A stretch of 64,000 nucleotides of DNA from Bacteroidales bacterium (GCA_028709785.1 JAQUTK010000021.1:610-64609); one strand, 5' to 3'. Numbered from the stretch's first letter, positions 39,555 through 58,098 are shown. Made by a program: numbers and translations. The notes: generated by a model from the sequence alone, not told the origin.

Positions 39555-40409
39555 ATGATATCTGATTATCGTTGTTTTTACTGCTTTGTAAAGGCATTTG
39601 AGAAGGTCCTTGAAAGAGAGAACTTCGGAACAAAGTTGAAGCTTGAGTTTACAAAAAATCTAGCTAATCTTTATGTAACACAGAATGATCCTTTTTCAGC
39701 ACCTGCCTTTTCGAGATCTTTGCATAACTTGTTAAAGCAATACACAAATGATCGGGATTCCTATACTTCCGTAAAAAAAGAGAGTAATGACATCGCTTTA
39801 AAATTGTATCCAGAGATGAAAGAGCGAATAGTGCAGGCAGAAAATCCTTTTGATGTAGCTATAAGATTGGCTATTGCAGGAAACATTATGGATGCTGCGA
39901 TCTATGATCGTTTTGATGTAAAAAGTACCATAGATAAAACGTTGAGTTCTGCTTTTGCTATTGACCATTCCGATTACTTAAATAAGGATCTTTTGAAAGC
40001 GAAAAAAGTGCTTTATATAGGCGATAATGCCGGTGAAATCGTATTTGACAAACTCTTTATCGAAACGATAAGGCACCCTGATATAAAGTTTTCTGTTCGT
40101 GGAAAACCGGTAATTAACGACGCGACAATGGAAGATGCGGAATATATAGGGATGAGGAATGTTGCTGATGTCATTTCTAATGGTAGTGATGCTCCGTCGA
40201 CTATTCTTGATCATTGTTCAGATGAGTTTTGTGCAGTTTTTGATGAAGCGGATCTCATTATATCCAAAGGTCAAGGAAATCTTGAAGGCCTTATAAATAA
40301 TAAGAATAAAAACATCTACTTTTTGTTGATGGTCAAGTGTGATGTGATTGCCGATGCTTTAAATGTAAAAAAAGGCGATTTTGTTGTTATGAATAATCGG
40401 ATGATTTAA
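39555..40409 (+). CDS. DUF89 (ARMT1-like damage-control phosphatase) family protein
   Basis: CFYCF N-terminus, YIGDNAGEIVFDKLFIE and SKGQGNLEGL motifs typical of DUF89. Confidence 0.75.
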   Translation: MISDYRCFYCFVKAFEKVLERENFGTKLKLEFTKNLANLYVTQNDPFSAPAFSRSLHNLLKQYTNDRDSYTSVKKESNDIALKLYPEMKERIVQAENPFDVAIRLAIAGNIMDAAIYDRFDVKSTIDKTLSSAFAIDHSDYLNKDLLKAKKVLYIGDNAGEIVFDKLFIETIRHPDIKFSVRGKPVINDATMEDAEYIGMRNVADVISNGSDAPSTILDHCSDEFCAVFDEADLIISKGQGNLEGLINNKNKNIYFLLMVKCDVIADALNVKKGDFVVMNNRMI

Positions 40410-40440
40410 ATCTGTTTCTTATTTTAATAGTTGATATGTT

Positions 40441-41376
40441 ATGATTAGTTTTGGACCCGTTCCTTCAAGAAGATTAGGGAAAAGCCTTGGTATCAATAAT
40501 ATCCCTTCCGGGAAAGTGTGTTCTTATTCATGTGTGTATTGCCAGGTAGGGCTAACAAAAGATTACAGAACAAAACAGACCGAACTTTACAAACCAAACG
40601 AAATCTTTGTTGCTGTAAAAAAACATTTGAGTTTACTCAAAGAGAAAGATATGCCAGATTATCTGACATTCGTATCAAATGGTGAACCTACATTAGATCT
40701 TTATCTTGGTGATACTATTGAGAAATTGAAAGTATTGGGCATACCTATTGCAGTAATAACCAATGCTTCTTTATTATTTAATTCAAACGTACAAGATGCA
40801 CTTTGTCTGGCTGATTGGGTTTCGGTAAAAGTAGATTCAAACGATGCTACAATTTGGGAATTAATAAACAGACCGGATAAAAGTCTCGATTTTGAACGAT
40901 ATCGTGAGTCTGTCATTGATTTCTCGGCGAAATATACAGGTAAGCTGATGACAGAAACAATGTTGGTGAGTGGGATAAATGATTCACGGAATGTTGTTCA
41001 ACAGACAGCTGAATTACTTTACCAGATACAGCCAGATACAGCTTATTTGTCCATCCCGATACGGCCGCCTGCTCTCTCTACTATTAAGATTCCTTCGGAA
41101 ACTGCCATGATAGAAGCTCATCAGATCTTATCAGAGAAGAATCTTCAGGTTGAATTTTTACTTGGTTTTGAAGGAACGAATACGGGCTATACAGGTAGTA
41201 TTCTTGATGATATTGTTGATATATGCACAGTTCACCCTCTGCGAGAAGATACGATGATGGAGCTTTTAAAAAAAGACAATGCTACACCAGAGATATTAAC
41301 TTCATTGATAGAACAAAAGTACATAAAAGCTGTAAGTTATAACTCCAATACATATTACATAAGATGCTTCTTTTGA
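40441..41376 (+). CDS. Radical SAM protein
   Basis: CxxxCxxC motif CSYSCVYCQ near the N-terminus; about 310 aa. Confidence 0.8.
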   Translation: MISFGPVPSRRLGKSLGINNIPSGKVCSYSCVYCQVGLTKDYRTKQTELYKPNEIFVAVKKHLSLLKEKDMPDYLTFVSNGEPTLDLYLGDTIEKLKVLGIPIAVITNASLLFNSNVQDALCLADWVSVKVDSNDATIWELINRPDKSLDFERYRESVIDFSAKYTGKLMTETMLVSGINDSRNVVQQTAELLYQIQPDTAYLSIPIRPPALSTIKIPSETAMIEAHQILSEKNLQVEFLLGFEGTNTGYTGSILDDIVDICTVHPLREDTMMELLKKDNATPEILTSLIEQKYIKAVSYNSNTYYIRCFF

Positions 41377-41421
41377 GAAATAAGATAATCAAAGAATTTT
41401 GTGTAATAATAAGGCGAAAAT

Positions 41422-41453
41422 GAACTTATGTTTGAAATAAAAAGATATCTTTG
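41422..41453 (+). promoter_or_regulatory. Operator-promoter cassette B: GAACTTATGTTT, GAAATAA, and TATCTTTG
   Basis: Palindrome variant at 41422-41433. -7 box at 41446-41453. Confidence 0.7.
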
Positions 41454-41604
41454 TGGATGAAGTGGTTTCTGCCAATTAATTATTTCGGATGTTTTATTTA
41501 AGATAGGAGGTTTAATTATGGGATGTGACACAGGGCTTAAGCCCAGAAAAGCTGTAGTGATAACTGAAAATGTAACTAACAATCAAAAACAGGAGGAAGT
41601 AAGT

Positions 41605-42219
41605 ATGAGTTCAACAATGGTAAGACGCGAAATGCCTAAATTTTCAATGGATGCTTTTGATGCAAAGAGTGGTCATTTTACCAAAGTGTCAAGTGATGAT
41701 TATAAAGGAAAGTGGACGGTAATCTGCTTTTATCCGGCAGACTTTACATTTGTATGCCCTACTGAAATAGCTGCTATGAATGCTAAGTATGATGAGTTTC
41801 AGAGATTAGGAGTGGAAATACTGGCTGTTTCAGTTGATTCTAAATTTTCTCACAAGCGATTTGCTGAAACAGAACCAATTCTGAAAGGTTTGAAGTTGAT
41901 GATGGGTGCCGATTCTAATCAGGAAGTGAGTCGTGCCTTTGGTGTGCTTGTTGAGGAAGAAGGCGTTGCTCTGAGAGGACGGTTTCTGTTTAACCCGGAT
42001 GGCCTTTGTGTGGCTCAGGAAGTACAGGCAGATTCAGTAGGAAGAAATGTGAATGAATTCTTGAGACAAATTGAAGCATGGCAGCATGCTACAAAAACAG
42101 GTGAAGTGTGTCCGGCTGGATGGAGACCCGGAAAGAAAACATTGCCGGTTCATACGGATGCGGAAAAAATGGCCGGTCATGTAGGCGATTATATTACGCT
42201 GGAAGAGATCCTGAGTTGA
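41605..42219 (+). CDS. Peroxiredoxin (AhpC/Prx1, typical 2-Cys)
   Basis: Peroxidatic Cys in DFTFVCPTEI and resolving Cys in GEVCPAGW. The start is taken at MSSTMV after AGGAGG. Confidence 0.85.
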   Translation: MSSTMVRREMPKFSMDAFDAKSGHFTKVSSDDYKGKWTVICFYPADFTFVCPTEIAAMNAKYDEFQRLGVEILAVSVDSKFSHKRFAETEPILKGLKLMMGADSNQEVSRAFGVLVEEEGVALRGRFLFNPDGLCVAQEVQADSVGRNVNEFLRQIEAWQHATKTGEVCPAGWRPGKKTLPVHTDAEKMAGHVGDYITLEEILS

Positions 42220-42311
42220 TGCCAAACAGCAGGATGTTGAAAACAAGGATTGTCTTTTAGTATGTTTTCTTATTAACACGGATTATTTACTGTTTAAAAA
42301 TGGAGGTTATT

Positions 42312-42545
42312 ATGCCTAGATTTAATGGACAAGGTCCTCGCGGAGAGGGCTCAATGACTGGTAGAAAGATGGGGCGTTGCAATTCTGCCGTCCGTCAAAA
42401 CTCGGATGAGAAATCAAATAACAATGATGTAGCATCTTTACCTCAAAATGGAGTTACGATTTCTAATCAGGGTAGAGGATTAGGATTAGGATTAGGAATG
42501 AGAATGGGTGGCCGTGGCCGAGGTCGTGGTGGATTGAATCATTGA
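42312..42545 (+). CDS. DUF5320-like Gly/Arg-rich small protein
   Basis: MPRFNGQGPRGEGSMTGRKMGRC N-terminus and GRGRGRGG tail. Same N-terminal pattern as 47525-47713. Confidence 0.65.
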   Translation: MPRFNGQGPRGEGSMTGRKMGRCNSAVRQNSDEKSNNNDVASLPQNGVTISNQGRGLGLGLGMRMGGRGRGRGGLNH

Positions 42546-42567
42546 AGATTCGCCCAATACATAAATG

Positions 42568-42607
42568 GATACCATGCTAATCTTAATGGCATGGTATCTG
42601 TTATTTT
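42568..42607 (+). terminator. Rho-independent terminator after the DUF5320-like gene
   Basis: GATACCATGC / GCATGGTATC stem, followed by TGTTATTTT. Confidence 0.6.
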
Positions 42608-42635
42608 CTATTACTTATATATTAATGCTTGAATA

Positions 42636-43376
42636 ATGGATAATGGGATTATACTAGTTTTAATTGCTCTTTTTGCAGGTAGTGTGGGTAGTGTTTTACT
42701 TGCCGGATTATTATTGCTCCTGAATGATAAGAGACTTCAGCAAATATCAACCTATCTGGCTTATCTTGCCGGAGGTACTTTGTTGGGTGCAACTTTTTTG
42801 GGTATGATACCTAAAGCAACTTCAATGCTCAGTTCGGATATCGTTCTTGAAATAACTCTTGCAGGCATTTTGTTCTTCTTTATTTTGGAAAAAATTATTC
42901 TTTGGCGTACTTGCCGTAATAAAGAGTGCGAACGTCATCTGCAGACTGCTATACCTATGATATTAATAGGTGATGCTTTTCACAATGCGATTGATGGAAT
43001 CGTTATCGCAGCTTCTTTTCTTACATCTACTGAGATGGGCGTTTTTGTAACTCTTTCTGTCATCTTTCATGAGATACCTCAGGAACTTGGTGATTTTGGG
43101 ATTTTACTTAAAGGTGGTATGTTACGTAGTAAAGCTTTGCTTTATAATGCTCTGTCCGGGAGCACCGCTATTATTATGGGCGTTATTGCCTATTATTATT
43201 TGAATACCGCACAATCGATAATTCCTTATGCGCTTGCTTTTTCTGCGTCCAGCTTTCTTTATATTGCTTTGGCTGACTTAATTCCTGAGATGCATAAGAA
43301 AACAAAATTTAAAGAATCAGCTATTCAGATTCTCATTGTTTCTCTCGGAATTCTTCTTGTTTATCTTATCAATTAA
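42636..43376 (+). CDS. ZIP family divalent metal transporter (ZupT-like)
   Basis: HNAIDG and HEIPQELGDFGIL motifs; multi-TM profile. Confidence 0.85.
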   Translation: MDNGIILVLIALFAGSVGSVLLAGLLLLLNDKRLQQISTYLAYLAGGTLLGATFLGMIPKATSMLSSDIVLEITLAGILFFFILEKIILWRTCRNKECERHLQTAIPMILIGDAFHNAIDGIVIAASFLTSTEMGVFVTLSVIFHEIPQELGDFGILLKGGMLRSKALLYNALSGSTAIIMGVIAYYYLNTAQSIIPYALAFSASSFLYIALADLIPEMHKKTKFKESAIQILIVSLGILLVYLIN

Positions 43377-43446
43377 ATTTGATATTTATAGAATTTAATA
43401 CACATCCACAAATAGATATAGGAAATATTCAAAAAAAACATTAGTC

Positions 43447-43477
43447 GAACATATGTTCAGAATAATCGTTATCTTTG
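43447..43477 (+). promoter_or_regulatory. Operator-promoter cassette C: GAACATATGTTC, AGAATAA, and TATCTTTG
   Basis: Perfect palindrome at 43447-43458. -7 box at 43470-43477. Confidence 0.75.
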
Positions 43478-43505
43478 TGACTTGAATTATTCATTTCAGA
43501 TTAGG

Positions 43506-44336
43506 ATGAAAATAGTTGTATTATCAGATAATAGACGTATAGATGACTCTCTGGAGATAGAGCATGGCTTGTGTATTTATCTGGAGAATGACCATGCAAA
43601 ATGCCTCCTTGATACCGGAGCATCGGATCTGTTTGTTAGAAATGCGGCAAAACTGAACGTTGATCTGGCAGCTGTCGATTATGTTTTTTTGTCGCATGGA
43701 CATGCAGATCATACAGGCGGTTTACCGGCATTCTTAAACGTCAATCAGAAAGCAAAAATTTTTCTTTCAAGAAATGTGGTTACTCAAGAGTTTTTTTCTA
43801 CCCGAAACAAGATTCATCAGATCAGTACAGACTTTGATCTGACTCCTTATTCCGAGAGAGTCATTTTTGTTGATGAACCTATGAGAATTAAGGATGATAT
43901 TCTTGTCTTCTCTGCCCTGAAAAGCGATTATCAGAAGCCAAAAGGGAATAGTACTTTGTATAAGGATGCGGGGCATGGAATGGTTCCGGATGATTTTAAT
44001 CACGAGATAGTTGTCTGTTTTGGTGTAGATAAATTACTTGTTTATACGGGCTGTGCTCACAAGGGTCTGTTAAATATCCTGGATTCGATTGTTTTAAAAC
44101 CTTCACAGCAAATAGAGACTGTGATTGGAGGTTTTCATCTGCTGGATAGTGTTCCTTTGCAGCCATTTGAAACAAAGGAAGATATTGATTTTATTGCACA
44201 GGAATTGAAGAAGAACTATTCGCACACTCGTTTTATAACAGGCCATTGTACAGGTGATAACGTGTTTCGACAATTAAAAGTAGAGCTGGGTGATCAATTG
44301 AGTAATTTCCATGCCGGTTATACATCATTATTTTAG
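43506..44336 (+). CDS. MBL-fold metallo-hydrolase
   Basis: HGHADHTGG motif. The start is taken at MKIVVLSDN. Confidence 0.8.
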   Translation: MKIVVLSDNRRIDDSLEIEHGLCIYLENDHAKCLLDTGASDLFVRNAAKLNVDLAAVDYVFLSHGHADHTGGLPAFLNVNQKAKIFLSRNVVTQEFFSTRNKIHQISTDFDLTPYSERVIFVDEPMRIKDDILVFSALKSDYQKPKGNSTLYKDAGHGMVPDDFNHEIVVCFGVDKLLVYTGCAHKGLLNILDSIVLKPSQQIETVIGGFHLLDSVPLQPFETKEDIDFIAQELKKNYSHTRFITGHCTGDNVFRQLKVELGDQLSNFHAGYTSLF

Positions 44337-44385
44337 TTGTTGATTAATGGAAAGCAAATCAATGTAATCATATTGTAGCATTCAT

Positions 44386-44829
44386 ATGGAGAAAATTAAA
44401 TTGGGTATTATTATTTGCGACAGGTATCGTACTTGTGCTGGAGGAAAATGTCTCAGAGCTTTAAAAAACAGGGAAGGAGCTTTTGCTGTTTATAAAGATC
44501 AGGAGGTAGAATTAGCCGCATATACAACGTGTGGTGGATGTCCTGGTGGGAATATAGAATATGCACCGGAAGAAATGGTTAAAAATGGTGTTACCCACGT
44601 TCATTTTGCTACCGGATTTTTAGTGGGTTATCCACCGTGTCCGTATATGGATTATTTTGAGAAGTTTATTACGGAAAAATATGGGCTGAAAGTCATCTTT
44701 GGCACTCATCCTATTCCTCAGAAATATTATCTCCAACATGTAGCTTTAAAAACATGGAACTCTAAGTTCTTGATAAAAGCGACTGAGAACACTATTTGTA
44801 ATGAAAATATACGTTTAAATTATGATTGA
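44386..44829 (+). CDS. CGGC domain protein
   Basis: TTCGGCPG motif plus additional conserved Cys (CDRYRTCAGGKC). Confidence 0.7.
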   Translation: MEKIKLGIIICDRYRTCAGGKCLRALKNREGAFAVYKDQEVELAAYTTCGGCPGGNIEYAPEEMVKNGVTHVHFATGFLVGYPPCPYMDYFEKFITEKYGLKVIFGTHPIPQKYYLQHVALKTWNSKFLIKATENTICNENIRLNYD

Positions 44830-45235
44830 ATACAATTATCAGTTCAGAGTATTATATCCCGATACCGATCGTATGGGAACGATGCATCATGCCAATTATG
44901 CAAAATATTATGAGGCAGCACGTTGGGAATTGCTGCGAAGTATTGGTGTGCCTTATAGCTCAATCGAAAAGGAGGGAGTAATGTGCCCGGTGATCCAAAT
45001 GAAGTTTAAGTTTGTCAAGACAACCGGTTATGATCAATTGCTGACTGTAAAAACGACCTTGAAAGAGATTAAAGGAGTTCGTATGTGGTTTACGTATGAT
45101 TTATATAATGAGCAACATGAATTAATCAATACCGCTGAAACTGAGTTGGCTTTTGTCGGATTAAATACATGGAAGCCTTGTAAAGCTCCGGAGGCTTTGC
45201 TAAAAGCGATTGAAAAATATGCTGTGACGAAGTAA
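44822..45235 (+). CDS. Acyl-CoA thioesterase (4HBT/YbgC hotdog family)
   Basis: YPDTDRMGTMHHANYAKYYE motif; about 137 aa. Confidence 0.8.
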   Translation: MIEYNYQFRVLYPDTDRMGTMHHANYAKYYEAARWELLRSIGVPYSSIEKEGVMCPVIQMKFKFVKTTGYDQLLTVKTTLKEIKGVRMWFTYDLYNEQHELINTAETELAFVGLNTWKPCKAPEALLKAIEKYAVTK

Positions 45236-45311
45236 GCTGTCGTGTTCTTTCTGCCTGTTTGAACAAATAGTAAGAGGGATAAGAAAAATAATTTAGAAAC
45301 ATGATTATAAT

Positions 45312-45333
45312 GAACAAATGTTCATTATATTTG
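45312..45333 (+). promoter_or_regulatory. Operator-promoter cassette D: GAACAAATGTTC directly abutting TATATTTG
   Basis: Palindrome variant at 45312-45323. -7 box at 45326-45333. A half-site, TGAACAAAT, also occurs at 45260-45268. Confidence 0.6.
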
Positions 45334-45367
45334 CATCGGATTAGATGAATCGTGTAAATTTTGAGCG

Positions 45368-46492
45368 ATGGAATTATTTAATGTGTATCCACTGTTTGAG
45401 GTAAATATTGTCAAAGGGAAAGGTTGTCGAGTGTGGGATGATAAAGGAACTGAGTATCTTGATCTGTATGGTGGTCATGCTGTCATTTCAATTGGACATT
45501 CGCATCCTCATTATGTAGAGATGCTAACCAGACAGCTTCATAAGCTTGGATTTTATTCTAATTCGGTTATCAATAAAATGCAACAAGAGTTTGCAGATAA
45601 ACTGGGAGCTATTTCAGATTACGATGATTATAATCTATTTCTGGTTAATTCGGGAGCTGAAGCCAATGAGAATGCATTAAAACTAGCCTCGTTTTATAAT
45701 AACCGCAAAAGAGTGATTGCTTTTTCAAAGTCATTTCATGGACGTACTTCTGCTGCTGCGCGCGTTACCGACAATCCGATGTATACTGCTCCGTTTAGTG
45801 AAGGCTTAGACGTTACCTTTCTTACACTAAATGATGTTGATGCTGTACATGCCGAACTTTCAAAAGGGGATGTCTGCGCGGTAATCATTGAGGGCATTCA
45901 GGGTGTAGGTGGCATTCAACTGCCAACTATAGAATTCTTTCGGCAATTACGTAATGCTTGTAACCAAAATGATACGGTTCTTATTCTCGATGAAGTGCAA
46001 TCGGGTTATGGACGAAGTGGTCGATTCTTTGCTCACCAATATTCAGGAATACGTCCTGACATCATTACGATGGCGAAAGGAATCGGTAATGGATTTCCAA
46101 TGAGTGGTCTGTTGATAAATTCGATGTTTGAAGCTGTACACGGTCAATTGGGCACCACTTTTGGTGGTAATCATTTGGCTTGCGCAGCAGCCATTGCTGT
46201 ATTGGATGTAATAAAAGAAGAAGCATTGATGGAAAATGCAGCGCAAGTAGGTGCTTATCTGAAGGCTGAAATTGCCGCAATTCCTAAAATTAAAGAAGTG
46301 CGTGGACGTGGGATGATGATCGGCATTGAACTGGATCAACCGGTAAAGGAGATCCGGACAAAGCTTTTATATAAGGAGAAGGTATTTACCGGAGTGAGTG
46401 GTACTCATGTAATCCGCTTGTTGCCACCACTTTGTTTGTCAATGGACGAAGCTGATATATTTCTGGATCGTTTCAAGAGAGTATTTAATTAA
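45368..46492 (+). CDS. Class III pyridoxal-phosphate aminotransferase (acetylornithine/ArgD-like)
   Basis: GGHAVISIGHSHP, DEVQSGYGRSGRFFA, and the PLP-lysine context MAKGIGNGFP. Confidence 0.85.
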   Translation: MELFNVYPLFEVNIVKGKGCRVWDDKGTEYLDLYGGHAVISIGHSHPHYVEMLTRQLHKLGFYSNSVINKMQQEFADKLGAISDYDDYNLFLVNSGAEANENALKLASFYNNRKRVIAFSKSFHGRTSAAARVTDNPMYTAPFSEGLDVTFLTLNDVDAVHAELSKGDVCAVIIEGIQGVGGIQLPTIEFFRQLRNACNQNDTVLILDEVQSGYGRSGRFFAHQYSGIRPDIITMAKGIGNGFPMSGLLINSMFEAVHGQLGTTFGGNHLACAAAIAVLDVIKEEALMENAAQVGAYLKAEIAAIPKIKEVRGRGMMIGIELDQPVKEIRTKLLYKEKVFTGVSGTHVIRLLPPLCLSMDEADIFLDRFKRVFN

Positions 46493-46503
46493 ATAGTTGC
46501 TAC

Positions 46504-47169
46504 ATGAAAATAACAATTCATCCTGCCGGAAGATACATTCTGATTTTAGGACTCTTCCTATATATACTTGTCTGTTCTACTATTGTTTTCGCATTTAATT
46601 ACTCAGACATTTATCTACTTGTAATGGGCGGGATTGGTTTCATCTACTTTTCTTTTTTGATCTATTTCTTCCGTAATCCGCAGAGAGAAGTGGATTTAAA
46701 CAATAATATTATTTATGCTCCGGCAGATGGTAAAATTGTGGTTCTGGAAGAGGCATACGAACCGGAATTTCTGAAAGAAAAATGCATAAAAGTTTCCATT
46801 TTTATGTCCATGCTTAACGTGCATGTGAATCGATATCCTGTAAGTGGAGTTGTGAAGTATACAAAATACCATGCAGGACGCTATTATATAGCTTATTATC
46901 CAAAAGCATCAGTGTTTAATGAGCATCAATCTACTGCTATTGAAACGTGTGAAGGTACATTGATCTTAGTCAAGCAAATTGCTGGAATAGTTGCCAGAAG
47001 AATTGTGTGTTATGCTAATCCGGGCAATGAGGCAGTACAGGGTGAAGATCTCGGATTTATAAAATTTGGGTCGAGGGTTGACCTTTATTTGCCATTGGGT
47101 ACTATTGTTATGGTGAAAAATGGCGATAAAGTGAAAGGTAATAGTACAATTATTGGTTATATCAATTGA
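46504..47169 (+). CDS. psd: Phosphatidylserine decarboxylase family protein (short membrane-anchored type)
   Basis: Two N-terminal TM helices. APADGKIV, NVHVNRYPVSG, and the FGSRVD self-cleavage-type motif. Confidence 0.75.
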   Translation: MKITIHPAGRYILILGLFLYILVCSTIVFAFNYSDIYLLVMGGIGFIYFSFLIYFFRNPQREVDLNNNIIYAPADGKIVVLEEAYEPEFLKEKCIKVSIFMSMLNVHVNRYPVSGVVKYTKYHAGRYYIAYYPKASVFNEHQSTAIETCEGTLILVKQIAGIVARRIVCYANPGNEAVQGEDLGFIKFGSRVDLYLPLGTIVMVKNGDKVKGNSTIIGYIN

Positions 47170-47202
47170 GTGATAATAAATGTTGAAAATAAATAAGTGG
47201 TT

Positions 47203-51046: not shown

Positions 51047-51223
51047 CGTGTGCGAATACGGTCGATTAGTAGGAGAGTCGTTGAGACTCATAATGCTATA
51101 GCTTTCAGCTTAATATATTGTTATTTATCTCTCATGTTTATCAGGCTGAAAGTGTTTTTTTAATGGTAAAGAGGGCGTGCCATAAAGTATGGCGCGCCCT
51201 CAAAGTACCTGAACGATCGTTTT

Positions 51224-51715
51224 TTAACGATATAAAATTTTAATACTTAATCCTTTTTGTACTGACCATCCTTCTTTGTCTGTTAAACTGATAAAAAAAT
51301 GATAGTCACCTTCATCAAAAGCTCCTACACTATTGCCAGAAGGAATTGTGATCGGAAGATTCGTTTCATACTTTCGTAAACCATTAGGGATGCTATAATC
51401 CTGAATGAATACAAAGGGATTAACAGGACTTTTAATGGGATCAAGATTCGGCTCTGTCACCTCGGTACTGTGTGAATGGTGATCAAAATTATTATGAATA
51501 TCAATGCTATATGAACCTAACTGAACATTATCCGTGAATAATGTTTTCATATAAAATGTTTCTCCAAAGTATAGCGTATCGCAATTATCGGGAAACGCAT
51601 CTTGAATGTACAAATCAATTGCCGGTTTTTGACTATCGATATCTTCATTTTTCTCGCATGAATTCAAAGCGATTAAGAGAAAGATCGAAAGTATACTTAT
51701 TTCTGCTTTTTTCAT
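51224..51715 (-). CDS. Lipoprotein, DUF4625-like (His-rich)
   Basis: Lipobox LNSC after the internal Met start. HNNFDHHSHS cluster. Lies downstream of the TonB-dependent receptor. Confidence 0.55.
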   Translation of the reverse strand: MKKAEISILSIFLLIALNSCEKNEDIDSQKPAIDLYIQDAFPDNCDTLYFGETFYMKTLFTDNVQLGSYSIDIHNNFDHHSHSTEVTEPNLDPIKSPVNPFVFIQDYSIPNGLRKYETNLPITIPSGNSVGAFDEGDYHFFISLTDKEGWSVQKGLSIKILYR

Positions 51716-51777
51716 TTGAATAATATTTAACAGCAGGTTAATAAACAACCTGCTGTACTGTTTTTTAAATATGAGAA

Positions 51778-52584
51778 TTAGTTTATTACTATCGGATAGT
51801 GACCTGAAAAAGCCCAATTTCCTCCAAAAGAGTCTTTGCTTTTTACCACGATGTAATAATCTCCAGAAGTCCATGTTGCTGTTTTGGGTGTAATATTATT
51901 ATCCAGAGCAGTACCTACAACTATATTTGCCGAAAAGCTATATGAAGTTGGATTTGTGAAGTCATGATTATGAAGTAAAGTAATGCTATTTCCATCATTA
52001 ACCTCAGCATCCGTTAGACCTTGGTCAACACGAACCAGACCAATATAGATTCCACCCAATGCTATATCATCACTTACAGAACCGGAAATACGAATAGTTT
52101 GCCCTGAAGCAAAAGATTGATTATTCGTAGGGGTTGATGTAATCGTGATTGTTGGGGCAACAGCATCAGAAGGAGTCTGAATGGTTAGGTCTTCGATTTC
52201 AATAGACGATTGCTGACCACTTTCATCGGTAACAATAAAATGGAAACAGTATGTTTCGTCAGCAACAGTAAGCGGGATGTCGATGTGTTTGTGAAATGTG
52301 GTGTTTTTCAACCCTCTGAATTCGGTATAAATACGATCGAAAGTCCACGCATTGTCGTTATCTTCCTGGTGGATTAAAACTTCAATTTTATTTATTTTTG
52401 CTTTCGCAGTTACTTCAGCTTCAACATGCAAATCGCTGCCAATAATACCGATATGGCTATTGCTTGTTCCTAATTCAACTCCGTTAATAACTGGTTTGGA
52501 TATTACTTCCTCATCTTTATCGCAAGATGAAAAAAGAACCATACAAGATGCCGCAAGAACGACAGCTATTGTTTTTGTGTTCAT
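51778..52584 (-). CDS. Lipoprotein with two Ig-like (DUF4625-like) repeats
   Basis: Lipobox FSSC. Internal duplication visible (ITLLHNHDF / FHKHIDIP blocks). Confidence 0.55.
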   Translation of the reverse strand: MNTKTIAVVLAASCMVLFSSCDKDEEVISKPVINGVELGTSNSHIGIIGSDLHVEAEVTAKAKINKIEVLIHQEDNDNAWTFDRIYTEFRGLKNTTFHKHIDIPLTVADETYCFHFIVTDESGQQSSIEIEDLTIQTPSDAVAPTITITSTPTNNQSFASGQTIRISGSVSDDIALGGIYIGLVRVDQGLTDAEVNDGNSITLLHNHDFTNPTSYSFSANIVVGTALDNNITPKTATWTSGDYYIVVKSKDSFGGNWAFSGHYPIVIN

Positions 52585-52619
52585 ACTTTTTTAAATTGTT
52601 ATTTTGAACATTACTACTC

Positions 52620-55034
52620 TTATTTGATTTTTCCTGAAAAAGGAATTGAAATATTCATTATGAGATTTCGTCCAGGCTCAGGAACGTTAATCAGCCTATA
52701 ATAGCTGGTGTGATTAAAATACTTCGTATTTAGCAGGTTTTGAACCTGCATGGATATACTTATTTTTTGATTCAAGAGTTTTACATCGCCTCCCAAACTA
52801 ATATTGATAATCTGATAGCCATCTGTGCTCTCTTCAGGAGGTACAATATTATTTTGAGGTGCTGTTATCCTATAATCTATTGACAAATACAGGTTCTCCG
52901 CAGACTTTATCTTCCGTTTGTCGTATTTGACATTAAGAATCATAGAAGCAGGGGGTGAGAATGGAAGAGTAAATCCCTTCTTTTCACCTGAAAGTTGTTT
53001 GGAATAAACAAATTCGCCCATTACACCCACTCGCAGAGACTCTATTACTTGATAATGGGCATGCATTTCCCCACCATATCGAAAGACCTCACTTTGTGTG
53101 TAATTGTAAATCTGATTTCCGTTGCCGTAAAGTCTGTCATGCTCAGATGTAGGGTTCAAATAAATGTAATTTGAAAAATAATTCAGAAATGGAGTTACCC
53201 CCATGGCAATCGCATTTGAATTGTATTCTACTCCTGCATCCAATTGATATGAAACTTCTGGTGACAAATCCGGTTTTCCCGCTTCATAACTAAAATGATG
53301 GTAATTTACTCCGTTAGCTGCTAACTCTTTAGCAATGGGCACACGAAAACTTTTACCCACATTTGTTTTGAAAGATAGCGTTGGAAGGTTGTAATTATAA
53401 CCGACAGACCATGACGTATTAGAAAAATGACGGCTTATCGCGTCAGCTCTGGTCAGATACTGTAAAGTAATATCATTATCGAGGCTGATTACAGGCGAAG
53501 AAAACCAATCATTATAACGCAATGTCTTGATATGCGTGTAATCATATCGTACACCCATCTGAATAGAACTCTTTGCCGATAACGCATACTTTGCCAGTAA
53601 AAACCCACCCACACTTAACTGTTTAAAAGCCGGAATAATAAAACCACGTCCATCAATCCGATTATCTTGATACTCGCTGTTTAAACCTACTAATAATTGA
53701 AAGAAATCATTCTTATAGTATGTAAACTTTAGATTGCTTGAATAAACATACTTCTCAAATTGACGCTCCAAATCAGCATCAAATCCCTGAGAACCGGGAA
53801 AAACAGCGGGCATGTAGCCGTGACTGACGTATTGACTCCATTCTTGTCTGAAATTACGTTGAAAGCCTAAGTCGGATTCAAATTTTAGATTCCCCCATGT
53901 ATATTCGCTTTTGTTGATAGTCTTGAAATGGTTCACTTTCTGATACGGGAAATGAATGTCATTGCTTGATTTATCATGTAAGCCTGCATCTACATTGCGG
54001 GGCTCCAAACCATGAGCATTGGCAAAAAAACCACTTTTCGTGTTTACATCACTGACAAAAAATCTGCTTAGAAATTTACGCTGAATGATCCCGAAAGAGA
54101 GATTCAGATTCTGTTCTTTTCCTGCTGTGTTTCGCAAATGATTTTTATACAATGCTGCGCGGTATGAGTAAATGTCCACACTATCGGTTGGCACCTTATA
54201 ATCTCCATAGTCCAGTATCGTTGCACGCAAATCAGCAAAGAACCATTTCTTTCTGCCGTACATTGAAATGGATGACCCTACGAGATTATTATTTGTCTTA
54301 CCTGACAGGTCAACCGTGCCTCCGATGGAATTATCAGCCGGTAAATTTCTATTTTTCAGATCAATCACTCCCCCGATGGCATCCGATCCATACATAAGTG
54401 AGGCAGGGCCTTTTATTATTTCGAGGTTGTCAACAGCATACTGATCAATTTCAAGCCCGTGGTCTTCGCCCCATTCCTGTCCTTCGTGCTTAACACCGTT
54501 TTCGACAACAACAACACGATTAAAGCCTAATCCTCTGATTACCGGTTTTGACTGTCCGGAACCAATATCAATTGTAGTAATTCCCGGCAACCTTTCCAGT
54601 GTTTTCATTAGACTACCACCCATGTTTTGTTTCAGATATTTCTCATTTACGATCTCAACATTGAGCGCCTCTTCTTTTTTTCGTGTCTTAGCATAATCAT
54701 AGGCTACAACAACCTCGTGCAAGTTAATTGAAGCTTCAACAAGTCGGGCATTATATGTTTTACTTCCGTTTATGAGTATTGTGTCAACAACAGACTTAAA
54801 ACCTATAAATGAGACTGTCACAGTATACGTACCTTTTGTAAGGCCGGATATTGTATACTTTCCCCGAGCATCGACAATCGCACCTTTTTCAATAGGAAGT
54901 AGTGTAACAGCCGCACCTGTCAAAGGCTCGCTGTTTTTGTCAACTACTGTACCCGAAAGCGAATAATTGTTTTGCCCAAAAGAAATGGCACATAAAAAAA
55001 TCATACACACTATTAGCGCATAAAACTTGCTCAT
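52620..55034 (-). CDS. TonB-dependent receptor with an N-terminal carboxypeptidase-regulatory-like domain
   Basis: Signal peptide, then YSLSGTVVDKNSEPLTGAAVTL. Plug motifs (IEIIKGPASLMYGSDAIGGVI) and a long beta-barrel. Confidence 0.85.
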   Translation of the reverse strand: MSKFYALIVCMIFLCAISFGQNNYSLSGTVVDKNSEPLTGAAVTLLPIEKGAIVDARGKYTISGLTKGTYTVTVSFIGFKSVVDTILINGSKTYNARLVEASINLHEVVVAYDYAKTRKKEEALNVEIVNEKYLKQNMGGSLMKTLERLPGITTIDIGSGQSKPVIRGLGFNRVVVVENGVKHEGQEWGEDHGLEIDQYAVDNLEIIKGPASLMYGSDAIGGVIDLKNRNLPADNSIGGTVDLSGKTNNNLVGSSISMYGRKKWFFADLRATILDYGDYKVPTDSVDIYSYRAALYKNHLRNTAGKEQNLNLSFGIIQRKFLSRFFVSDVNTKSGFFANAHGLEPRNVDAGLHDKSSNDIHFPYQKVNHFKTINKSEYTWGNLKFESDLGFQRNFRQEWSQYVSHGYMPAVFPGSQGFDADLERQFEKYVYSSNLKFTYYKNDFFQLLVGLNSEYQDNRIDGRGFIIPAFKQLSVGGFLLAKYALSAKSSIQMGVRYDYTHIKTLRYNDWFSSPVISLDNDITLQYLTRADAISRHFSNTSWSVGYNYNLPTLSFKTNVGKSFRVPIAKELAANGVNYHHFSYEAGKPDLSPEVSYQLDAGVEYNSNAIAMGVTPFLNYFSNYIYLNPTSEHDRLYGNGNQIYNYTQSEVFRYGGEMHAHYQVIESLRVGVMGEFVYSKQLSGEKKGFTLPFSPPASMILNVKYDKRKIKSAENLYLSIDYRITAPQNNIVPPEESTDGYQIINISLGGDVKLLNQKISISMQVQNLLNTKYFNHTSYYRLINVPEPGRNLIMNISIPFSGKIK

Positions 55035-55080
55035 ACTATATTCATTGAGTGAGAGAATCCGAAAAATACAAAGTAAAAGA

Positions 55081-55446
55081 TTATAATTGTACCAGATAAG
55101 GTGGTGCACGCGCAGGATTTATGGTTATGATCTGGTTATGAGGTTGAGCAATTGTACTCAGATTTAGTCTTCGGTTGATTAATACAATGAAAATAGAGAA
55201 AATCAAAAACTCCGGTAATTTGTTTATAGCAAATTTATAATTACAAATTGGACATTGATCAACTGTTGAACCTCCTATAATGACAACATCTTTCGTCTTT
55301 CCTGAAGAAAGACGAGAGATGTTGTCATCCTGAAAGCTATAAGAATGATGCCAAACAATATGAACTGATTGGAAAATTATTGGGAAAAAAAAGATTCCCA
55401 ATAAGATTAGCGCAATATGTTTTTTAATTCTGATCAATGATTGCAA
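55081..55446 (-). CDS. Small membrane protein with a His cluster, paralog of 61815-62210
   Basis: TM helix, then HIVWHHSYSF. C-terminal RAPPYL, compared with RGPPAL in the paralog. Confidence 0.5.
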   Translation of the reverse strand: MQSLIRIKKHIALILLGIFFFPIIFQSVHIVWHHSYSFQDDNISRLSSGKTKDVVIIGGSTVDQCPICNYKFAINKLPEFLIFSIFIVLINRRLNLSTIAQPHNQIITINPARAPPYLVQL

Positions 55447-55850
55447 TATTTCTTTTTACAAGTTGGACACGTACCTTTAATCAAAATGTCTATTTCATCT
55501 TCTGCATATCCATCAGGTAACTGAATTTCTTGCATCGGTACAGAATCAAGGCATTTCACAATATGACAATGATTGCAAAAGAAATGCGCATGCCCTTTTT
55601 TATCTGTTATTGATTTATCTATTGCATATTTAATTATCTGGTTATCAATGATAATCTTGTGGATGATCTTATGTTCTTCCAATGTTTTAAATGAACGATA
55701 AAATGTGGTTCGGTCAAAATTATAGGATAACTGATTTCTGATATCATTTTCAGACAAGGCCTGATTTGTAGATAACATAATATCAATAATTCCTTCTCGA
55801 CAACTGGTTCGTTTGAGATTGTGAATATTTAAAACGTCAATAGCTTTCAT
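55434..55850 (-). CDS. Fur family transcriptional regulator
   Basis: Winged-helix N-terminus (TSCREGIIDIM...TFYRSFKTLEEHKIIH). HAHFFCNHC and CPTCKK metal sites. Confidence 0.8.
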   Translation of the reverse strand: MKAIDVLNIHNLKRTSCREGIIDIMLSTNQALSENDIRNQLSYNFDRTTFYRSFKTLEEHKIIHKIIIDNQIIKYAIDKSITDKKGHAHFFCNHCHIVKCLDSVPMQEIQLPDGYAEDEIDILIKGTCPTCKKKYCNH

Positions 55851-56112: not shown

Positions 56113-56143
56113 GAACGTATGTTTGAAATAACGCTTATATTTG
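56113..56143 (+). promoter_or_regulatory. Operator-promoter cassette E: GAACGTATGTTT, GAAATAA, and TATATTTG
   Basis: Palindrome variant at 56113-56124. -7 box at 56136-56143. Lies upstream of the DUF134 gene. Confidence 0.7.
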
Positions 56144-56180
56144 CAGCTTGTATTGTTATTAATTAATTGAAGCTATTCAG

Positions 56181-56603
56181 ATGGCAAGAACCAAACAAGA
56201 TAGAAAAATAGAAGCACCTCCGATTATGGAAGGCTTTAAGCCCTTTGGTATTCCCCGTCGGGCTTTAGATTCTGTTGTTTTAAGTCTGGATGAATACGAG
56301 TCTATAAGGCTACTGGATTACGAAGGATTGATGCAGGAGCAGGCTGCTGATCGCATGAACGTGTCGCGCCCCACATTGACGCGTATCTACGAAAATGCAC
56401 GAAAAGTGATTGCTCAGGCTTTTGTGGAGGGTAAGATGATCATAATTGATGGAGGAAATGTTGAATTTGACAGACAGTGGTTCAGATGTAAGCGATGCCA
56501 TAAGTTGATTGGGGGAATTGAAAATCATATCAAATGTAATAATTGTCCGACTTTTAATAACGATGAACTGACTCCCATCAATCATCCGGAGCAAACAGAA
56601 TGA
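56181..56603 (+). CDS. DUF134 (UPF0251) HTH protein with a C-terminal CxxC-x12-CxxC extension
   Basis: FKPFGIP, LSLDEYESIRLLDYEGLMQEQAADRMNVSRPTLTRIYENARKKV-type sigma70-region-4-like HTH. C-terminus: CKRC...CNNC. Confidence 0.8.
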   Translation: MARTKQDRKIEAPPIMEGFKPFGIPRRALDSVVLSLDEYESIRLLDYEGLMQEQAADRMNVSRPTLTRIYENARKVIAQAFVEGKMIIIDGGNVEFDRQWFRCKRCHKLIGGIENHIKCNNCPTFNNDELTPINHPEQTE

Positions 56604-57229
56604 AAGAAGAAAACAAGATAAAGGATACGTTTGTATCCAAAGCTGCCGAGTGGGATAGTCCCGATAAAGTGGCCATGACGAATAAGTTTGTCAACGAACT
56701 GTTGTCGCATATCCATCCGCTTCCCTCGTGGAAAGCACTGGAAATAGGTACGGGAACGGGTTTGGTTGGGTTACAGATTGAGCCGTTGGTGGGTATGCTG
56801 GTGATGGAAGATACATCGGAATCGATGCTCAATGTGTTGAGGCAGAAACTCAACAGCGAGAGTAAAGTGGAAATAGTGCACGGTGAAGTGTTTGACTACC
56901 AAGAGAGAGATATCGACTTTGTCTTCTCGGCGATGGCTTTTCATCATCTCCCGGACGTTAAGAAAACGATTCACCATTTGGCCACGATCACTAAAACCGA
57001 TGCGTATGTGGCTATCGGCGATCTGGTTACGGAGGATGGCTCGTTTCATCGCTTCGAACCGATTCCTCACTGTGGCTTTGATACCGTGCTCTTGTCGCAA
57101 CAGTTTGAGCAGGCCGGTTTTAAGGTGATACGGGTGAAAGTTTATAATACTCTCTCCCGATTGATGGATGGAGAGATGAGAAGTTATGATCAGTTTATGC
57201 TGATCGCTCAACGAAAAGAGAATGAATAA
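56600..57229 (+). CDS. Class I SAM-dependent methyltransferase
   Basis: ALEIGTGTGLVG motif I. ATGA overlap with the DUF134 gene. Confidence 0.8.
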   Translation: MKEENKIKDTFVSKAAEWDSPDKVAMTNKFVNELLSHIHPLPSWKALEIGTGTGLVGLQIEPLVGMLVMEDTSESMLNVLRQKLNSESKVEIVHGEVFDYQERDIDFVFSAMAFHHLPDVKKTIHHLATITKTDAYVAIGDLVTEDGSFHRFEPIPHCGFDTVLLSQQFEQAGFKVIRVKVYNTLSRLMDGEMRSYDQFMLIAQRKENE

Positions 57230-57250
57230 TATCTACAAATACAAAAGACA

Positions 57251-57625
57251 ATGAAGATTGCAGTTCCAACAAAAGAAAATAGCCAGATTGATAATCATTT
57301 TGGACATTGTGAGTTTTATACCCTTTTTACCATATCAGATAATAAGGAAGTAGTGGATGTGACAACCCTTGAGTCACCTCAGGGTTGTGGCTGTAAATCA
57401 AACATAGCTTCTACACTGGCTGCTATGGATGTGAAAGTGATGCTTGCCGGTGGAATCGGCGACGGAGCCATCAGCAAACTGGCGTCGAGTAATATTCAGG
57501 TTATACGCAACTGTCAGGGTGATGTGCGGGATTTGGTGATGAATTATCTGGCTGGATCTCTGAAAGATGGAGGAGCAAGTTGTGCGGCTCATAGTCACGA
57601 AGAGGGTCACGAATGTAACCGTTGA
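57251..57625 (+). CDS. NifX/NifB-C-terminal-like small protein 3
   Basis: MKIAVPT...HFGHCEFYTLF...VMLAGGIGDGAISKL, with a Cys/His-rich tail CAAHSHEEGHEC. Confidence 0.8.
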   Translation: MKIAVPTKENSQIDNHFGHCEFYTLFTISDNKEVVDVTTLESPQGCGCKSNIASTLAAMDVKVMLAGGIGDGAISKLASSNIQVIRNCQGDVRDLVMNYLAGSLKDGGASCAAHSHEEGHECNR

Positions 57626-58098
57626 GAAAAATGGATCAAACGGAAATAGAACAAAGGATACAAAAAGCCATAAGCTACTTTGAGAGTGGGTATAACTGTT
57701 CGCAGTCGGTCTTTATGGCCTATAGCGATCTCTATGGCATAGAACAGGAGACGGCTGCTAAAATAGCGACTTCTTTTGGGGGTGGCATGGGACGATTGCG
57801 CGAAGTGTGTGGCACGGTGAGCGGTATGTTTCTGATTTTGGGACTGCATTATCCCTTTACGGTGCCCACAGATAAGGAGGCCAAGAATACCAATTATAGG
57901 GCGGTGCAGCGTACGGCCAACTTGTTTAAAGCGGAGATGGGATCGTATATTTGTGCTGATCTGCTGAAGATCGGACGTGAACCGCAAGCTCCCGTGTCAT
58001 CGGAGCGGACAAAGGAGTATTACAGGATGCGTCCGTGTACGCGTTGTGTGGCGCTGGCTGCGGAGATCGTGGGTAAAGAGATTGCGGGCATCGGATAA
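57622..58098 (+). CDS. C_GCAxxG_C_C family redox-active protein
   Basis: YNCSQSV, GGGMGRLREVCGTVSG, CADLL, and the CTRCV motif arrangement. Confidence 0.8.
   Translation: MRKMDQTEIEQRIQKAISYFESGYNCSQSVFMAYSDLYGIEQETAAKIATSFGGGMGRLREVCGTVSGMFLILGLHYPFTVPTDKEAKNTNYRAVQRTANLFKAEMGSYICADLLKIGREPQAPVSSERTKEYYRMRPCTRCVALAAEIVGKEIAGIG

Follow-up and report, generated by a model that had tools for sequence, protein, structure and literature searches.

The genes that encode the orange protein (ORP) complex are, among the conserved gene clusters of strict anaerobes, some of the most widespread, and their role is still not understood. One such cluster lies in a 64,000-nucleotide stretch of an uncultured Bacteroidales genome (GCA_028709785.1, JAQUTK010000021.1:610-64609), which is called the window below. 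Between positions 39555 and 58098, three NifX-like proteins, two MinD-like ATPases with ferredoxin motifs and an Mrp-like ATPase are encoded together with a DUF134 protein, a DUF89 protein, a radical SAM protein, a peroxiredoxin, a ZIP-family metal transporter and several further redox or metal proteins. The locus raises the question of what holds so mixed a set together and what controls it. We consider it likely that the stretch is a regulon for the handling of Fe-S or metal-sulfur clusters, repressed by its DUF134 protein, which would also regulate its own gene; one of the NifX-like proteins, NifX3, is probably the cluster sensor.

Operators and transcription units in the window

The region consists of five co-directional transcription units, not of one operon. 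Each unit is headed by the palindrome GAACATATGTTC or a near variant, located just 5' of a Bacteroidota-type -7 box (TAnnTTTG). The five operators, O1 to O5, and the units behind them are the following (PSD, phosphatidylserine decarboxylase; Fd, ferredoxin).

39494-39524, + strand: O1, GAACATATGTTC at 39494-39505 with -7 box TATCTTTG at 39517-39524; 5' of DUF89, unit 1 (DUF89-radical SAM)
41422-41453, + strand: O2, GAACTTATGTTT with -7 box TATCTTTG; 5' of the peroxiredoxin gene, unit 2 (peroxiredoxin-DUF5320)
43447-43477, + strand: O3, GAACATATGTTC with -7 box TATCTTTG; 5' of MBL, unit 3 (MBL-CGGC-thioesterase)
45311-45333, + strand: O4, TGAACAAATGTTCA abutting -7 box TATATTTG; 5' of the aminotransferase gene, unit 4 (aminotransferase-PSD-NifX1-DUF5320-NifX2-MinD/Fd A-MinD/Fd B-Cys-module ferredoxin-Mrp)
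56113-56143, + strand: O5, GAACGTATGTTT with -7 box TATATTTG; 5' of DUF134, unit 5 (DUF134-methyltransferase-NifX3-C_GCAxxG_C_C)

Defined as the 12-mer with at most two mismatches plus TAnnTTTG within 24 nt, this composite motif occurs five times in the window, without exception in intergenic plus-strand DNA of this region; 200 shuffles that preserved dinucleotides gave a mean of 0.075 and a maximum of 2. The layout of O4 is the canonical promoter architecture of ORP operons, a 23-mer of the type used for the metagenome scan below, and the operator-box spacing of O5 recurs in two other loci (L086 and L087). The position of O5 before the gene of DUF134 itself suggests autoregulation. The gap between the PSD and NifX1 genes is short (33 nt) and holds no promoter signal, so that the ORP core is apparently co-transcribed with the aminotransferase and PSD genes from O4. 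Terminator-like hairpins were observed downstream of the first DUF5320 gene (42564-42602), of Mrp (51171-51201) and of the C_GCAxxG_C_C gene (58119-58159).

The initial annotation had placed these genes under repressor-type control instead of the sigma54 control known for Desulfovibrio. Five palindromic operators sitting on core promoters agree with the former, and no match to a -24/-12 promoter was found anywhere in the region; no enhancer-binding protein is encoded among the open reading frames (ORFs) scanned over 28.8-62.2 kb of the window. An Rfam scan of 38.5-58.5 kb, at E-values up to 0.1, gave no riboswitch or other RNA. Scanning for sigma-70 promoters was uninformative (55 matches versus 66 expected), and Bacteroidota promoters lie outside its coverage.

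The DUF134 operator and its regulator

The candidate regulator and its proposed sensor are both encoded in unit 5.

56181-56603, + strand: DUF134/UPF0251 protein (PF02001), 83.7 bits against a cut-off of 27
56600-57229, + strand: class-I SAM methyltransferase, by profile search
57251-57625, + strand: NifX3, a TM1816-type Nitro_FeMo-Co protein with HFGHC and GCGC motifs and a Cys/His-rich tail
57631-58098, + strand: C_GCAxxG_C_C family putative redox protein, by Pfam and NCBIfam

For comparison, 80 loci were taken from one-genome-per-species contigs, fetched with a MinD-ferredoxin profile, and their ORFs were assigned to the 26 proteins of the window by phmmer. DUF134 heads the cluster in most of these loci, and a NifX-like gene comes next in 34 of 44 genome loci. 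A GAACnnnnGTTC-type palindrome lies between -250 and +10 of 20 of the 52 DUF134 genes found elsewhere; about one would be expected from the background of 0.073 per kb. In the remaining DUF134 loci, exactly this promoter position is taken by other palindromes, and the half-site changes together with the recognition helix of the protein: SR(P/A)TFARIYE is paired with TGAGAATATTCTCA (11 loci), SRPT(F/L)TR(I/L)Y with TGAACAnnTGTTCA (at least 12 loci and the window), SRSTFxRLIERAR with TGCACATATGTGCA, and SRQTFGRII with TG(G/A)GCATATGC(C/T)TA. The palindrome abuts or overlaps the -7/-10 box; it stands directly 5' of the TATAAT box in Campylobacterota, and in several Bacteroidota loci the -7 box is sandwiched by two palindromes. 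Such a placement on or around the core promoter box is the geometry of a repressor.

The association was also examined blindly from the reverse side. A metagenome collection was scanned with the 23-mer TGAACANNTGTTCATTATNTTTG (operator plus box) alone, and the first ORF within 300 nt was recorded. At least 120 stretches matched; among the matches listed, comprising 116 promoters, the first ORF encodes DUF134 in 40 cases, a fusion of DUF134 with a Nitro_FeMo-Co domain in 27, DUF5320 in 20 and NifX1 in 7; the rest include the Cys module (4), a TonB receptor (3), DUF89 (2), and a methyltransferase, Mrp and ZIP (1 each). At least 103 of the 116 listed first genes thus belong to the set found in the window, 67 of them encoding DUF134 itself, and no SOS gene (recA, lexA, uvr or din) comes first behind any of the 116 listed promoters. 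The three loci with a TonB receptor directly behind a DUF134-type operator are L156, L165 and L173.

The palindrome could nevertheless be the site of some other regulator, such as LexA, the Fur-family protein encoded nearby or a globally acting redox regulator, with DUF134 as a bystander. The consensus of O1-O5, GAAC-N4-GTTC, is identical to the known LexA box of Firmicutes, the Gram-positive Cheo box (CGAACATATGTTCG), and a Fur-family gene stands divergent to DUF134 at a distance of 330 bp, as part of the unit that splits the region:

51224-55850, - strand: intervening unit with two DUF4625 proteins, a TonB-dependent receptor (52620-55004), a doubtful small ORF (55081-55446) and a Fur-family regulator (55434-55850)

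This unit carries no DUF134-type operator. Across phyla, the operator travels with DUF134 in the absence of an adjacent Fur gene, and its half-site co-varies with the DUF134 recognition helix. Despite the identity with the Cheo box, LexA is ruled out by this co-variation and because the first genes behind the 116 listed promoters are mostly those of the DUF134/ORP set and in no case SOS genes; we regard a regulator other than DUF134 as very unlikely. Since O1-O5 match the Cheo-box consensus, motif-based scans for SOS regulons in Bacteroidota could misassign such sites. We infer that the palindrome is the operator of the DUF134 protein.

DUF134 combines a sigma-70 region-4-like helix-turn-helix (HTH), which gives weak Pfam matches to Sigma70_r4 and HTH_31, with an invariant C-terminal C103-C106-H116-C119-C122 module; 1721 homologues were found. 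The subtype present in the window occurs at 70-76% identity in many Bacteroidia and has an invariant W-x-R-C-x2-C...H...C-x2-C module at its C-terminus; in most of the other ORP-linked DUF134 proteins, there are one or two CxxC...CxxC modules. In the AlphaFold2 model, the HTH core (pLDDT 79-89) superposes at 0.5-0.9 Å on the operator-bound DNA-binding domain of DeoR and on region 4 of an extracytoplasmic function (ECF) sigma factor. A sequence search of the PDB returned no solved DUF134 relative, only a weak match to the DeoR HTH.

The link to NifX3 comes from gene order and gene fusion. The operon of the window subtype is conserved as DUF134-MBL-NifX3-4HBT thioesterase, in one case (L087) with a peroxiredoxin gene just upstream behind an operator of its own. 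At 27 operator-bearing promoters among the matches listed, DUF134 is fused to a NifX3-type domain with HFGHC, GCGC and a Cys/His-rich tail. Fusions at 27 independent promoters are Rosetta-stone evidence that the two proteins act together, and on this basis NifX3 is proposed as the cluster-binding sensor of the repressor; it is probably the sensor partner of DUF134. The fusion proteins are 270-282 residues long and apparently autoregulated, and a gene for a DUF4405 (cytochrome-b-like) membrane protein often follows (L096, L103, L105, L106, L110, L111, L130, L140, L161 and others), several of these loci being from human gut. No MinD-ferredoxin pair was found in the contiguous downstream run of these fusion loci, downstream DNA being the part searched. 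Such fusions are common in gut and sediment metagenomes, and they hint at the signal and hence at what the pathway produces or repairs.

More tentatively, and with slightly less than even confidence, we propose that DUF134/UPF0251 proteins form a new class of metallocluster-sensing repressors with a NifX-like sensor, which would rule an anaerobe-wide ORP regulon through TGnnCAnnTGnnCA-type palindromes. If true, this would be the first function for PF02001 and the first regulatory role for the NifX fold, and it would supply a defined regulon (ORP core, DUF89, radical SAM, MBL, CGGC, thioesterase, peroxiredoxin and ZIP) from which the function of the orange protein could be attacked. In the literature on DUF134, UPF0251, COG1342 and DUF5320, we found neither an operator assignment nor a link to a NifX-like sensor; an earlier description elsewhere is possible. 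The assignment of operator and regulator, together with the link to a NifX-like sensor, is the most useful new element of this analysis. The pairing is directly testable with a 140-residue protein and five 30-bp DNA sites.

The ORP core and its gene neighbourhood

The genes of units 1-4 were assigned from an ORF listing and profile searches with Pfam and NCBIfam.

39555-40409, + strand: DUF89/ARMT1-like protein of the damage-control phosphatase family (Pfam PF01937, 217 bits)
40441-41376, + strand: radical SAM protein with CSYSCVYC, a CxxxCxxC motif (Pfam, 35.2 bits against a cut-off of 29.5)
41518-42219, + strand: typical 2-Cys peroxiredoxin (AhpC-TSA, 124.6 bits, plus 1-cysPrx_C)
42300 (or 42312)-42545, + strand: DUF5320a, small Gly/Arg-rich protein starting MPRFNGQGP (Pfam)
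42636-43376, + strand: ZIP-family divalent metal transporter (Pfam Zip, 124.5 bits)
43506-44336, + strand: MBL-fold metallo-hydrolase with HGHADH motif (Pfam)
44386-44829, + strand: CGGC-domain protein (PF08821, 99 bits)
44822-45235, + strand: YbgC/FadM-type 4HBT acyl-CoA thioesterase (Pfam, NCBIfam)
45368-46492, + strand: ArgD-like class-III aminotransferase (Pfam, NCBIfam)
46504-47169, + strand: PSD (Pfam, NCBIfam)
47203-47520, + strand: NifX1, NifX-like protein of orange-protein (Orp8) type (PF02579, Nitro_FeMo-Co, 53 bits)
47525-47713, + strand: second DUF5320 copy, small protein starting MPRMDGTGP (Pfam)
47732-48073, + strand: NifX2 with HFGHC motif (Nitro_FeMo-Co; positions 265-365 of NCBIfam MrpORP)
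48070-48945, + strand: MinD-like P-loop ATPase A with inserted 2x[4Fe-4S] ferredoxin, Orp3/Orp4 type (CbiA/ParA plus Fer4)
48926-49789, + strand: MinD-like P-loop ATPase B with inserted 2x[4Fe-4S] ferredoxin (CbiA/ParA plus Fer4), 20-nt overlap with A
49803-50204, + strand: Cys6-His module (CVCPSCGFTMQHEKGVACFSLLCPKC) fused to a 2x[4Fe-4S] ferredoxin, 133 residues (Pfam)
50234-51046, + strand: Mrp/NBP35-family ATPase (ParA/NUBPL PF10609, 282 bits)

Every family named by the initial annotation was recovered in its place; the thioesterase, aminotransferase, PSD and methyltransferase genes and the entire minus-strand unit 51224-55850 had not been listed. The ATGA overlaps that it gave as signs of tight junctions are present at 48070 and 56600, whereas the third, at 57622, reads TTGA and is followed by ATG at 57631. 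The peroxiredoxin is PrxU/AhpC-like by NCBIfam, with its peroxidatic Cys in FVCPTE and the resolving Cys near the C-terminus in EVCPAGW. The radical SAM protein reaches the cut-off of no NCBIfam family, the best matches (viperin-like and TYW1-like) being far below; a NifB-like role, which we considered for it, finds no support in these matches.

In Desulfovibrio, the ORP complex includes Orp3 and Orp4, which are MinD-like and carry two ferredoxin motifs each, the small [2Fe-2S]-type protein Orp5, the orange protein Orp8 and Orp9, or MrpORP; cluster transfer from MrpORP to Orp3-4-8 takes place in vitro (PMC6345978, PMC8359166). The correspondence of the core with these loci, already recognized in the initial annotation, holds in gene content as those papers describe it. 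NifX1 matches the D. gigas orange protein (PDB 2WFB, E 5e-9) as well as MTH1175 and TM1290; NifX2 and NifX3 fall in the PH0822/TM1816 branch in the PDB sequence search. On the 365-position NCBIfam MrpORP model, Mrp covers positions 3-253 (244 bits) and NifX2 positions 265-365 (115 bits), neither reaching the family cut-off of 450. As the two cover complementary parts, the two-domain Orp9 of Desulfovibrio is encoded here as two genes, with NifX2 as the free-standing counterpart of the C-terminal Di-Nase domain of MrpORP/Orp9. By homology, unit 4 encodes the Bacteroidota version of the anaerobe-wide ORP complex.

More than 8000 homologues of MinD-like ATPase A were found. Two CxxCxxCxxxC motifs are present in the MinD-ferredoxin proteins of 158 of 160 relatives, C70/73/76/80 and C101/104/107/111 being invariant. 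Apart from this ferredoxin insert, a DCD cysteine (81/81 in subunit A) and a switch-II PPGxxC cysteine (72/81) are conserved across phyla; in subunit B, each is found in 63 of 79 sequences. The ATPases give weak matches to the NifH Pfam family (E 1e-4 to 1e-6), and an extra cluster may sit between the subunits of their dimer, as in NifH; the two cysteines recall ATP-driven electron transfer of the NifH type. PDB sequence searches returned archaeal MinD proteins and polyferredoxins but no solved structure of a MinD-ferredoxin ATPase.

These features bear on a second reading, proposed for Desulfovibrio ORP, in which the MinD-like ATPases form chiefly a spatial or cell-division device that positions something instead of handling clusters. 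They do belong to the MinD/ParA family, and a morphological defect and polar localisation were described in Desulfovibrio (PMC8359166, PMC6345978). In the loci studied here, however, the ATPases each bear a pair of ferredoxin motifs along with other conserved cysteines at the ATPase core, every conserved partner either binds clusters or is a redox protein, a NifX-like cluster-binding domain is found fused to the regulator, and the neighbourhoods hold no MinC, MinE or FtsZ-related gene. We consider such a device unlikely.

The clusters handled might also be Mo, W or Cu thiometalates instead of Fe-S, perhaps so that sulfidic habitats can be tolerated by detoxifying thiomolybdate or Cu. The orange protein, a homologue of NifX1, binds [S2MoS2CuS2MoS2] as its Mo-Cu-S cluster (PMC6345978), and a CusB-like efflux adaptor is encoded just downstream on the other strand. 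Yet no molybdate or tungstate transporter, molybdenum cofactor (Moco) gene or Moco riboswitch lies in or beside the region, the transporter of the set is of the ZIP family, and the Desulfovibrio partners have been shown to hold Fe-S clusters. Thiometalate handling is accordingly given little weight here.

The Mrp of the window reads ENMSWFTPLPHPDE where Mrp/NBP35 proteins have ENMSxFxCPxCG; in Bacteroidota ORP-linked Mrp proteins (L004-L035), the CxxC is replaced by a conserved W-F-[TS]-P-x-x-H-P-[DE]-E, and several of the CxxC-bearing ORP-linked Mrp proteins of other phyla are MrpORP-type fusions of 430-470 residues. The Cys6-His module occupies residues 24-49 of the protein encoded at 49803 and follows the pattern C-x-C-P-x-C-G-x5-H-x2-G-x-P-C-x4-5-C-P-x-C. 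It occurs in 30 loci (for example L010, L012, L016, L026-L029, L063, L057, L070 and L085), at the C-terminus of small DUF5320-like Gly/Arg-rich proteins or as a C-terminal fusion on long DUF134 regulators; in the lineage of the window it stands at the N-terminus of the 2x[4Fe-4S] ferredoxin. Pfam gives generic sub-threshold zinc-ribbon matches only. An alternative assignment as the C-terminal half of DUF5320 proved wrong, full-length DUF5320 having a coiled-coil end. As candidate counterparts of Orp5, the window has two DUF5320 proteins and this module fused to the ferredoxin; the module may be an Orp5-type small Fe-S protein.

Neighbours of the core were counted over the 80 genome loci; the counts are lower bounds because many contigs are short. 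NifX1 was found in 70 of 80 loci, NifX2 in 49, DUF134 in 48, Mrp in 31, DUF5320 in 26, MBL in 23, the Cys module/ferredoxin in 21, DUF89 (beside the MinD-Fd pair) in 20, radical SAM in 20 and NifX3 in 11. The thioesterase recurs in 10, all from Bacteroidota (10 of 41 Bacteroidota loci) and beside ORP or DUF134 modules, and CGGC in 7, within ORP operons. Lower counts were obtained for the peroxiredoxin (4), ZIP (4), the methyltransferase (3), PSD (2, both Smithella) and C_GCAxxG_C_C (1); the aminotransferase was found in none, and the Fur, TonB-receptor and DUF4625 genes in 0-1. DUF89 and radical SAM matches in other loci have medians of 220 and 203 bits, so these neighbours are true orthologues.

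Operator-controlled loci extend this picture, as the common operator defines which further genes belong to the ORP system. ZIP lies within operator-controlled ORP operons in L092, L101, L116 and L158, and operator-controlled metagenome runs also hold CGGC, peroxiredoxin, MBL, thioesterase and radical SAM genes. The thioesterase stands beside ORP or DUF134 modules also in L004, L086 and L087, C_GCAxxG_C_C beside the ORP core in L004, L024 and L152, and the methyltransferase occurs in metagenome locus L124. The arrangement with the ArgD-like aminotransferase and PSD is limited to the lineage of the window (L001-L003); a PSD-like gene was seen between two MinD-ferredoxin genes in Smithella (L038 and L046, 170-179 bits). 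A relative at 61% identity has the order DUF134-NifX1-DUF5320-NifX2-MinD-MinD-ferredoxin-Mrp-thioesterase-C_GCAxxG-Prx, and in a relative at 76% protein identity the gene order is identical to that of the window.

Taken together, the core is syntenic, not scattered, across 80 genomes of many bacterial and archaeal phyla. The view that it is embedded in a larger redox and metal gene set stands for most of the accessory genes, by the common operator and by recurrence beside the core elsewhere, but not for the TonB-receptor/Fur unit and the aminotransferase. The further suggestion that the system is specific to anaerobic Bacteroidales fails: DUF134, NifX, DUF5320, DUF89, the MinD-Fd pair, radical SAM, Mrp, MBL and CGGC form a recurrent neighbourhood also in Desulfobacterota, Planctomycetota, Campylobacterota, Cloacimonadota, Bathyarchaeia, Halobacteriota and others, and the system is therefore pan-anaerobe. 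As judged from the loci compared, four features are specific to Bacteroidota: an Mrp that lacks CxxC, an MrpORP split in two, a thioesterase as associated gene and the Cys6-His/ferredoxin fusion. The window thus joins two conserved modules under one operator; one comprises the ORP core, DUF89, radical SAM and CGGC, the other DUF134-MBL-NifX3-thioesterase and the peroxiredoxin.

An origin as unrelated operons brought together by chance, or as a genomic island of recent acquisition, was weighed in the light of base composition and flanking genes. Genes between 39.4 and 51.1 kb have a GC content of 0.378 and a third-position GC content (GC3) of 0.31, versus 0.456 and 0.51 in the first 29 kb; the GC drop that had been taken as a hint of horizontal acquisition is thus right in direction and was slightly overstated in size. 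In the vicinity, 30-34.7 kb is probably a mobile defence island and 60-61 kb holds an IS110 element; the aminotransferase, PSD and TonB-receptor unit are not recurrent partners. However, the units share an operator and their synteny recurs; gene order and low GC alike recur in the relative at 76% protein identity; close homologues come exclusively from Bacteroidales; and the low-GC3 block, 38463-55850, does not match the borders of the regulon, taking in the TonB-receptor unit and leaving out the unit of DUF134, methyltransferase, NifX3 and C_GCAxxG, the GC content of which is 0.42-0.50. The window as a whole is a GC mosaic in which low and high stretches alternate at least five times. An accidental or recently acquired assembly seems quite improbable, and on transfer we conclude nothing firmer than that the region is not a recent cross-phylum transfer.

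The divergent 4.6-kb unit 51224-55850 is absent from 79-80 of the 80 other loci and conserved only in L001-L003; it is predicted to be a separate metal-uptake operon outside the regulon. Its DUF4625 proteins are His-rich lipoproteins, and the small ORF is possibly a membrane protein. A second Fur-family gene, followed by DUF6769, was noted at 61335-62210, and the two look like paralogous metal-uptake operons, possibly of Zur/Fur type. Downstream of the regulon, the CusB/HlyD-type efflux adaptor occupies 58175-59434 on the minus strand; beyond it, a truncated outer-membrane efflux protein gene (59370-59810) is apparently interrupted by an IS110-family transposase split in two ORFs (60015-60488 and 60518-61078). 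Upstream (28813-29841, 37306-38457 and 38463-39302) lie genes for two leucine-rich-repeat proteins of BspA type and for a CAAX/Rce1-like protease; L001, an independent Logan contig, begins in the second leucine-rich-repeat gene and stops just past the Fur gene. The stretch 30137-34714, which at a GC3 of 0.20-0.26 encodes a HATPase_c_3 protein together with an OLD-family (AAA_15 + TOPRIM) nuclease and part of a type I restriction subunit, is probably the mobile defence island mentioned above.

Proposed mechanism and comparison with known systems

In the mechanism that we propose, DUF134 would occlude the core promoter and in this way repress the other units as well as its own gene. Expression would then depend on whether NifX3 holds an Fe-S (or metal-sulfur) cluster, or on the redox state of that cluster, as the gene fusions suggest. 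By analogy with IscR, loss of the cluster would derepress the regulon in a feedback, and this would account for the co-regulation of the peroxiredoxin. The products, if they behave like their Desulfovibrio homologues (PMC6345978), would assemble, carry or repair Fe-S/metal-sulfur clusters in an ATP-dependent manner. The work would fall to the two MinD-like ATPases with their ferredoxin inserts, the NifX-like proteins would hold the clusters, and the Mrp-like ATPase would be the third P-loop component; the MinD-ferredoxin pair and the NifX-like and small Cys proteins are pictured as Fe-S proteins of one complex. DUF89, radical SAM, MBL, CGGC, thioesterase, ZIP and peroxiredoxin may have accessory or protective functions.

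Several points weigh against a DUF134-controlled cluster-handling regulon. That DUF134 binds the palindrome, the direction in which it regulates and the signal that it obeys all rest on inference, not on experiment. Taken alone, the 12-mer is not significantly enriched in the window (8 versus 3.9 expected), only the composite motif is, and for the ZIP gene at 42636 no separate operator was found. Mean pLDDT in the AlphaFold model of DUF134 is 63, with the C-terminal Cys module at low confidence, and the Foldseek E-values of the HTH are weak (~0.1), because the domain is short. Two housekeeping-looking genes, ArgD-like and PSD, stand unexplained inside the core operon, and the peroxiredoxin, ZIP, C_GCAxxG and methyltransferase genes rarely recur (1-4 of 80 loci). 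CxxC ligands are present in 0 of 19 Bacteroidota ORP-linked Mrp proteins versus 14 of 14 from other phyla; lacking these ligands, by which MrpORP carries its cluster and passes it on, the Mrp of the window does not allow the Desulfovibrio cluster-transfer step to be carried over as such. Even in Desulfovibrio, the physiological role of ORP is unresolved, both a cell-division phenotype and a Mo-Cu cluster having been reported (PMC8359166, PMC6345978).

Compared with the orp locus of Desulfovibrio vulgaris Hildenborough (DVU2103-DVU2109), the window shares the adjacent MinD-Fd pair, the NifX-like Orp8 homologue, both MrpORP domains and an occurrence limited to anaerobes; small Gly/Arg- and Cys-rich proteins are present as well, as possible counterparts of Orp5. 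Different from Desulfovibrio, MrpORP is split and its Mrp part has no CxxC, and the core lies in one co-directional operon in place of two divergent ones. Desulfovibrio orp expression depends on sigma54, OrpR and integration host factor (IHF) and is off once the redox potential rises (PMC6345978, PMC8359166). Here, neither a sigma54 promoter nor OrpR is found, and a proposed DUF134 repressor with palindromic operators takes their place; the response would run opposite to that of the OrpR circuit, which is active only at low potential. The regulon also reaches beyond Desulfovibrio orp, with DUF89, radical SAM, MBL, CGGC, thioesterase, peroxiredoxin, a third NifX-like protein and C_GCAxxG_C_C. 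The Bacteroidota variant thus looks rewired, in its split MrpORP, its Mrp without cysteine ligands and its DUF134 repressor in place of sigma54/OrpR.

With the Mrp/NBP35/ApbC carriers, the Mrp of the window has in common a full-length ParA/NUBPL domain and the deviant Walker A GKGGVGKS, ApbC and MrpORP being its best NCBIfam matches; unlike them, it has neither the ENMSxFxCPxCG motif, the CxxC of which ligates the bridging [4Fe-4S] cluster, nor an N-terminal DUF59. Nitrogenase cofactor maturation (NifB/NifX/NafY/NifH) likewise combines the PF02579 carrier fold, a SIMIBI-class ATPase with Fe-S and a radical SAM protein, whereas NifDK and NifEN are missing here and the radical SAM protein is not NifB-like. 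The operator is near-identical to the Cheo box of LexA and differs from it in that the half-site tracks DUF134 and no SOS gene comes first behind the promoters listed. In regulatory logic, a parallel is IscR, an Rrf2-family [2Fe-2S] repressor with feedback control of the isc operon: as proposed here too, a cluster-dependent repressor autoregulates genes for cluster handling, and these are derepressed when the cluster is lost under oxidation or demand. Unlike IscR, DUF134 belongs to an unrelated family, with a sigma-70 region-4-like HTH, a Cys4-His module and a putative NifX-like sensor that is either separate or fused.

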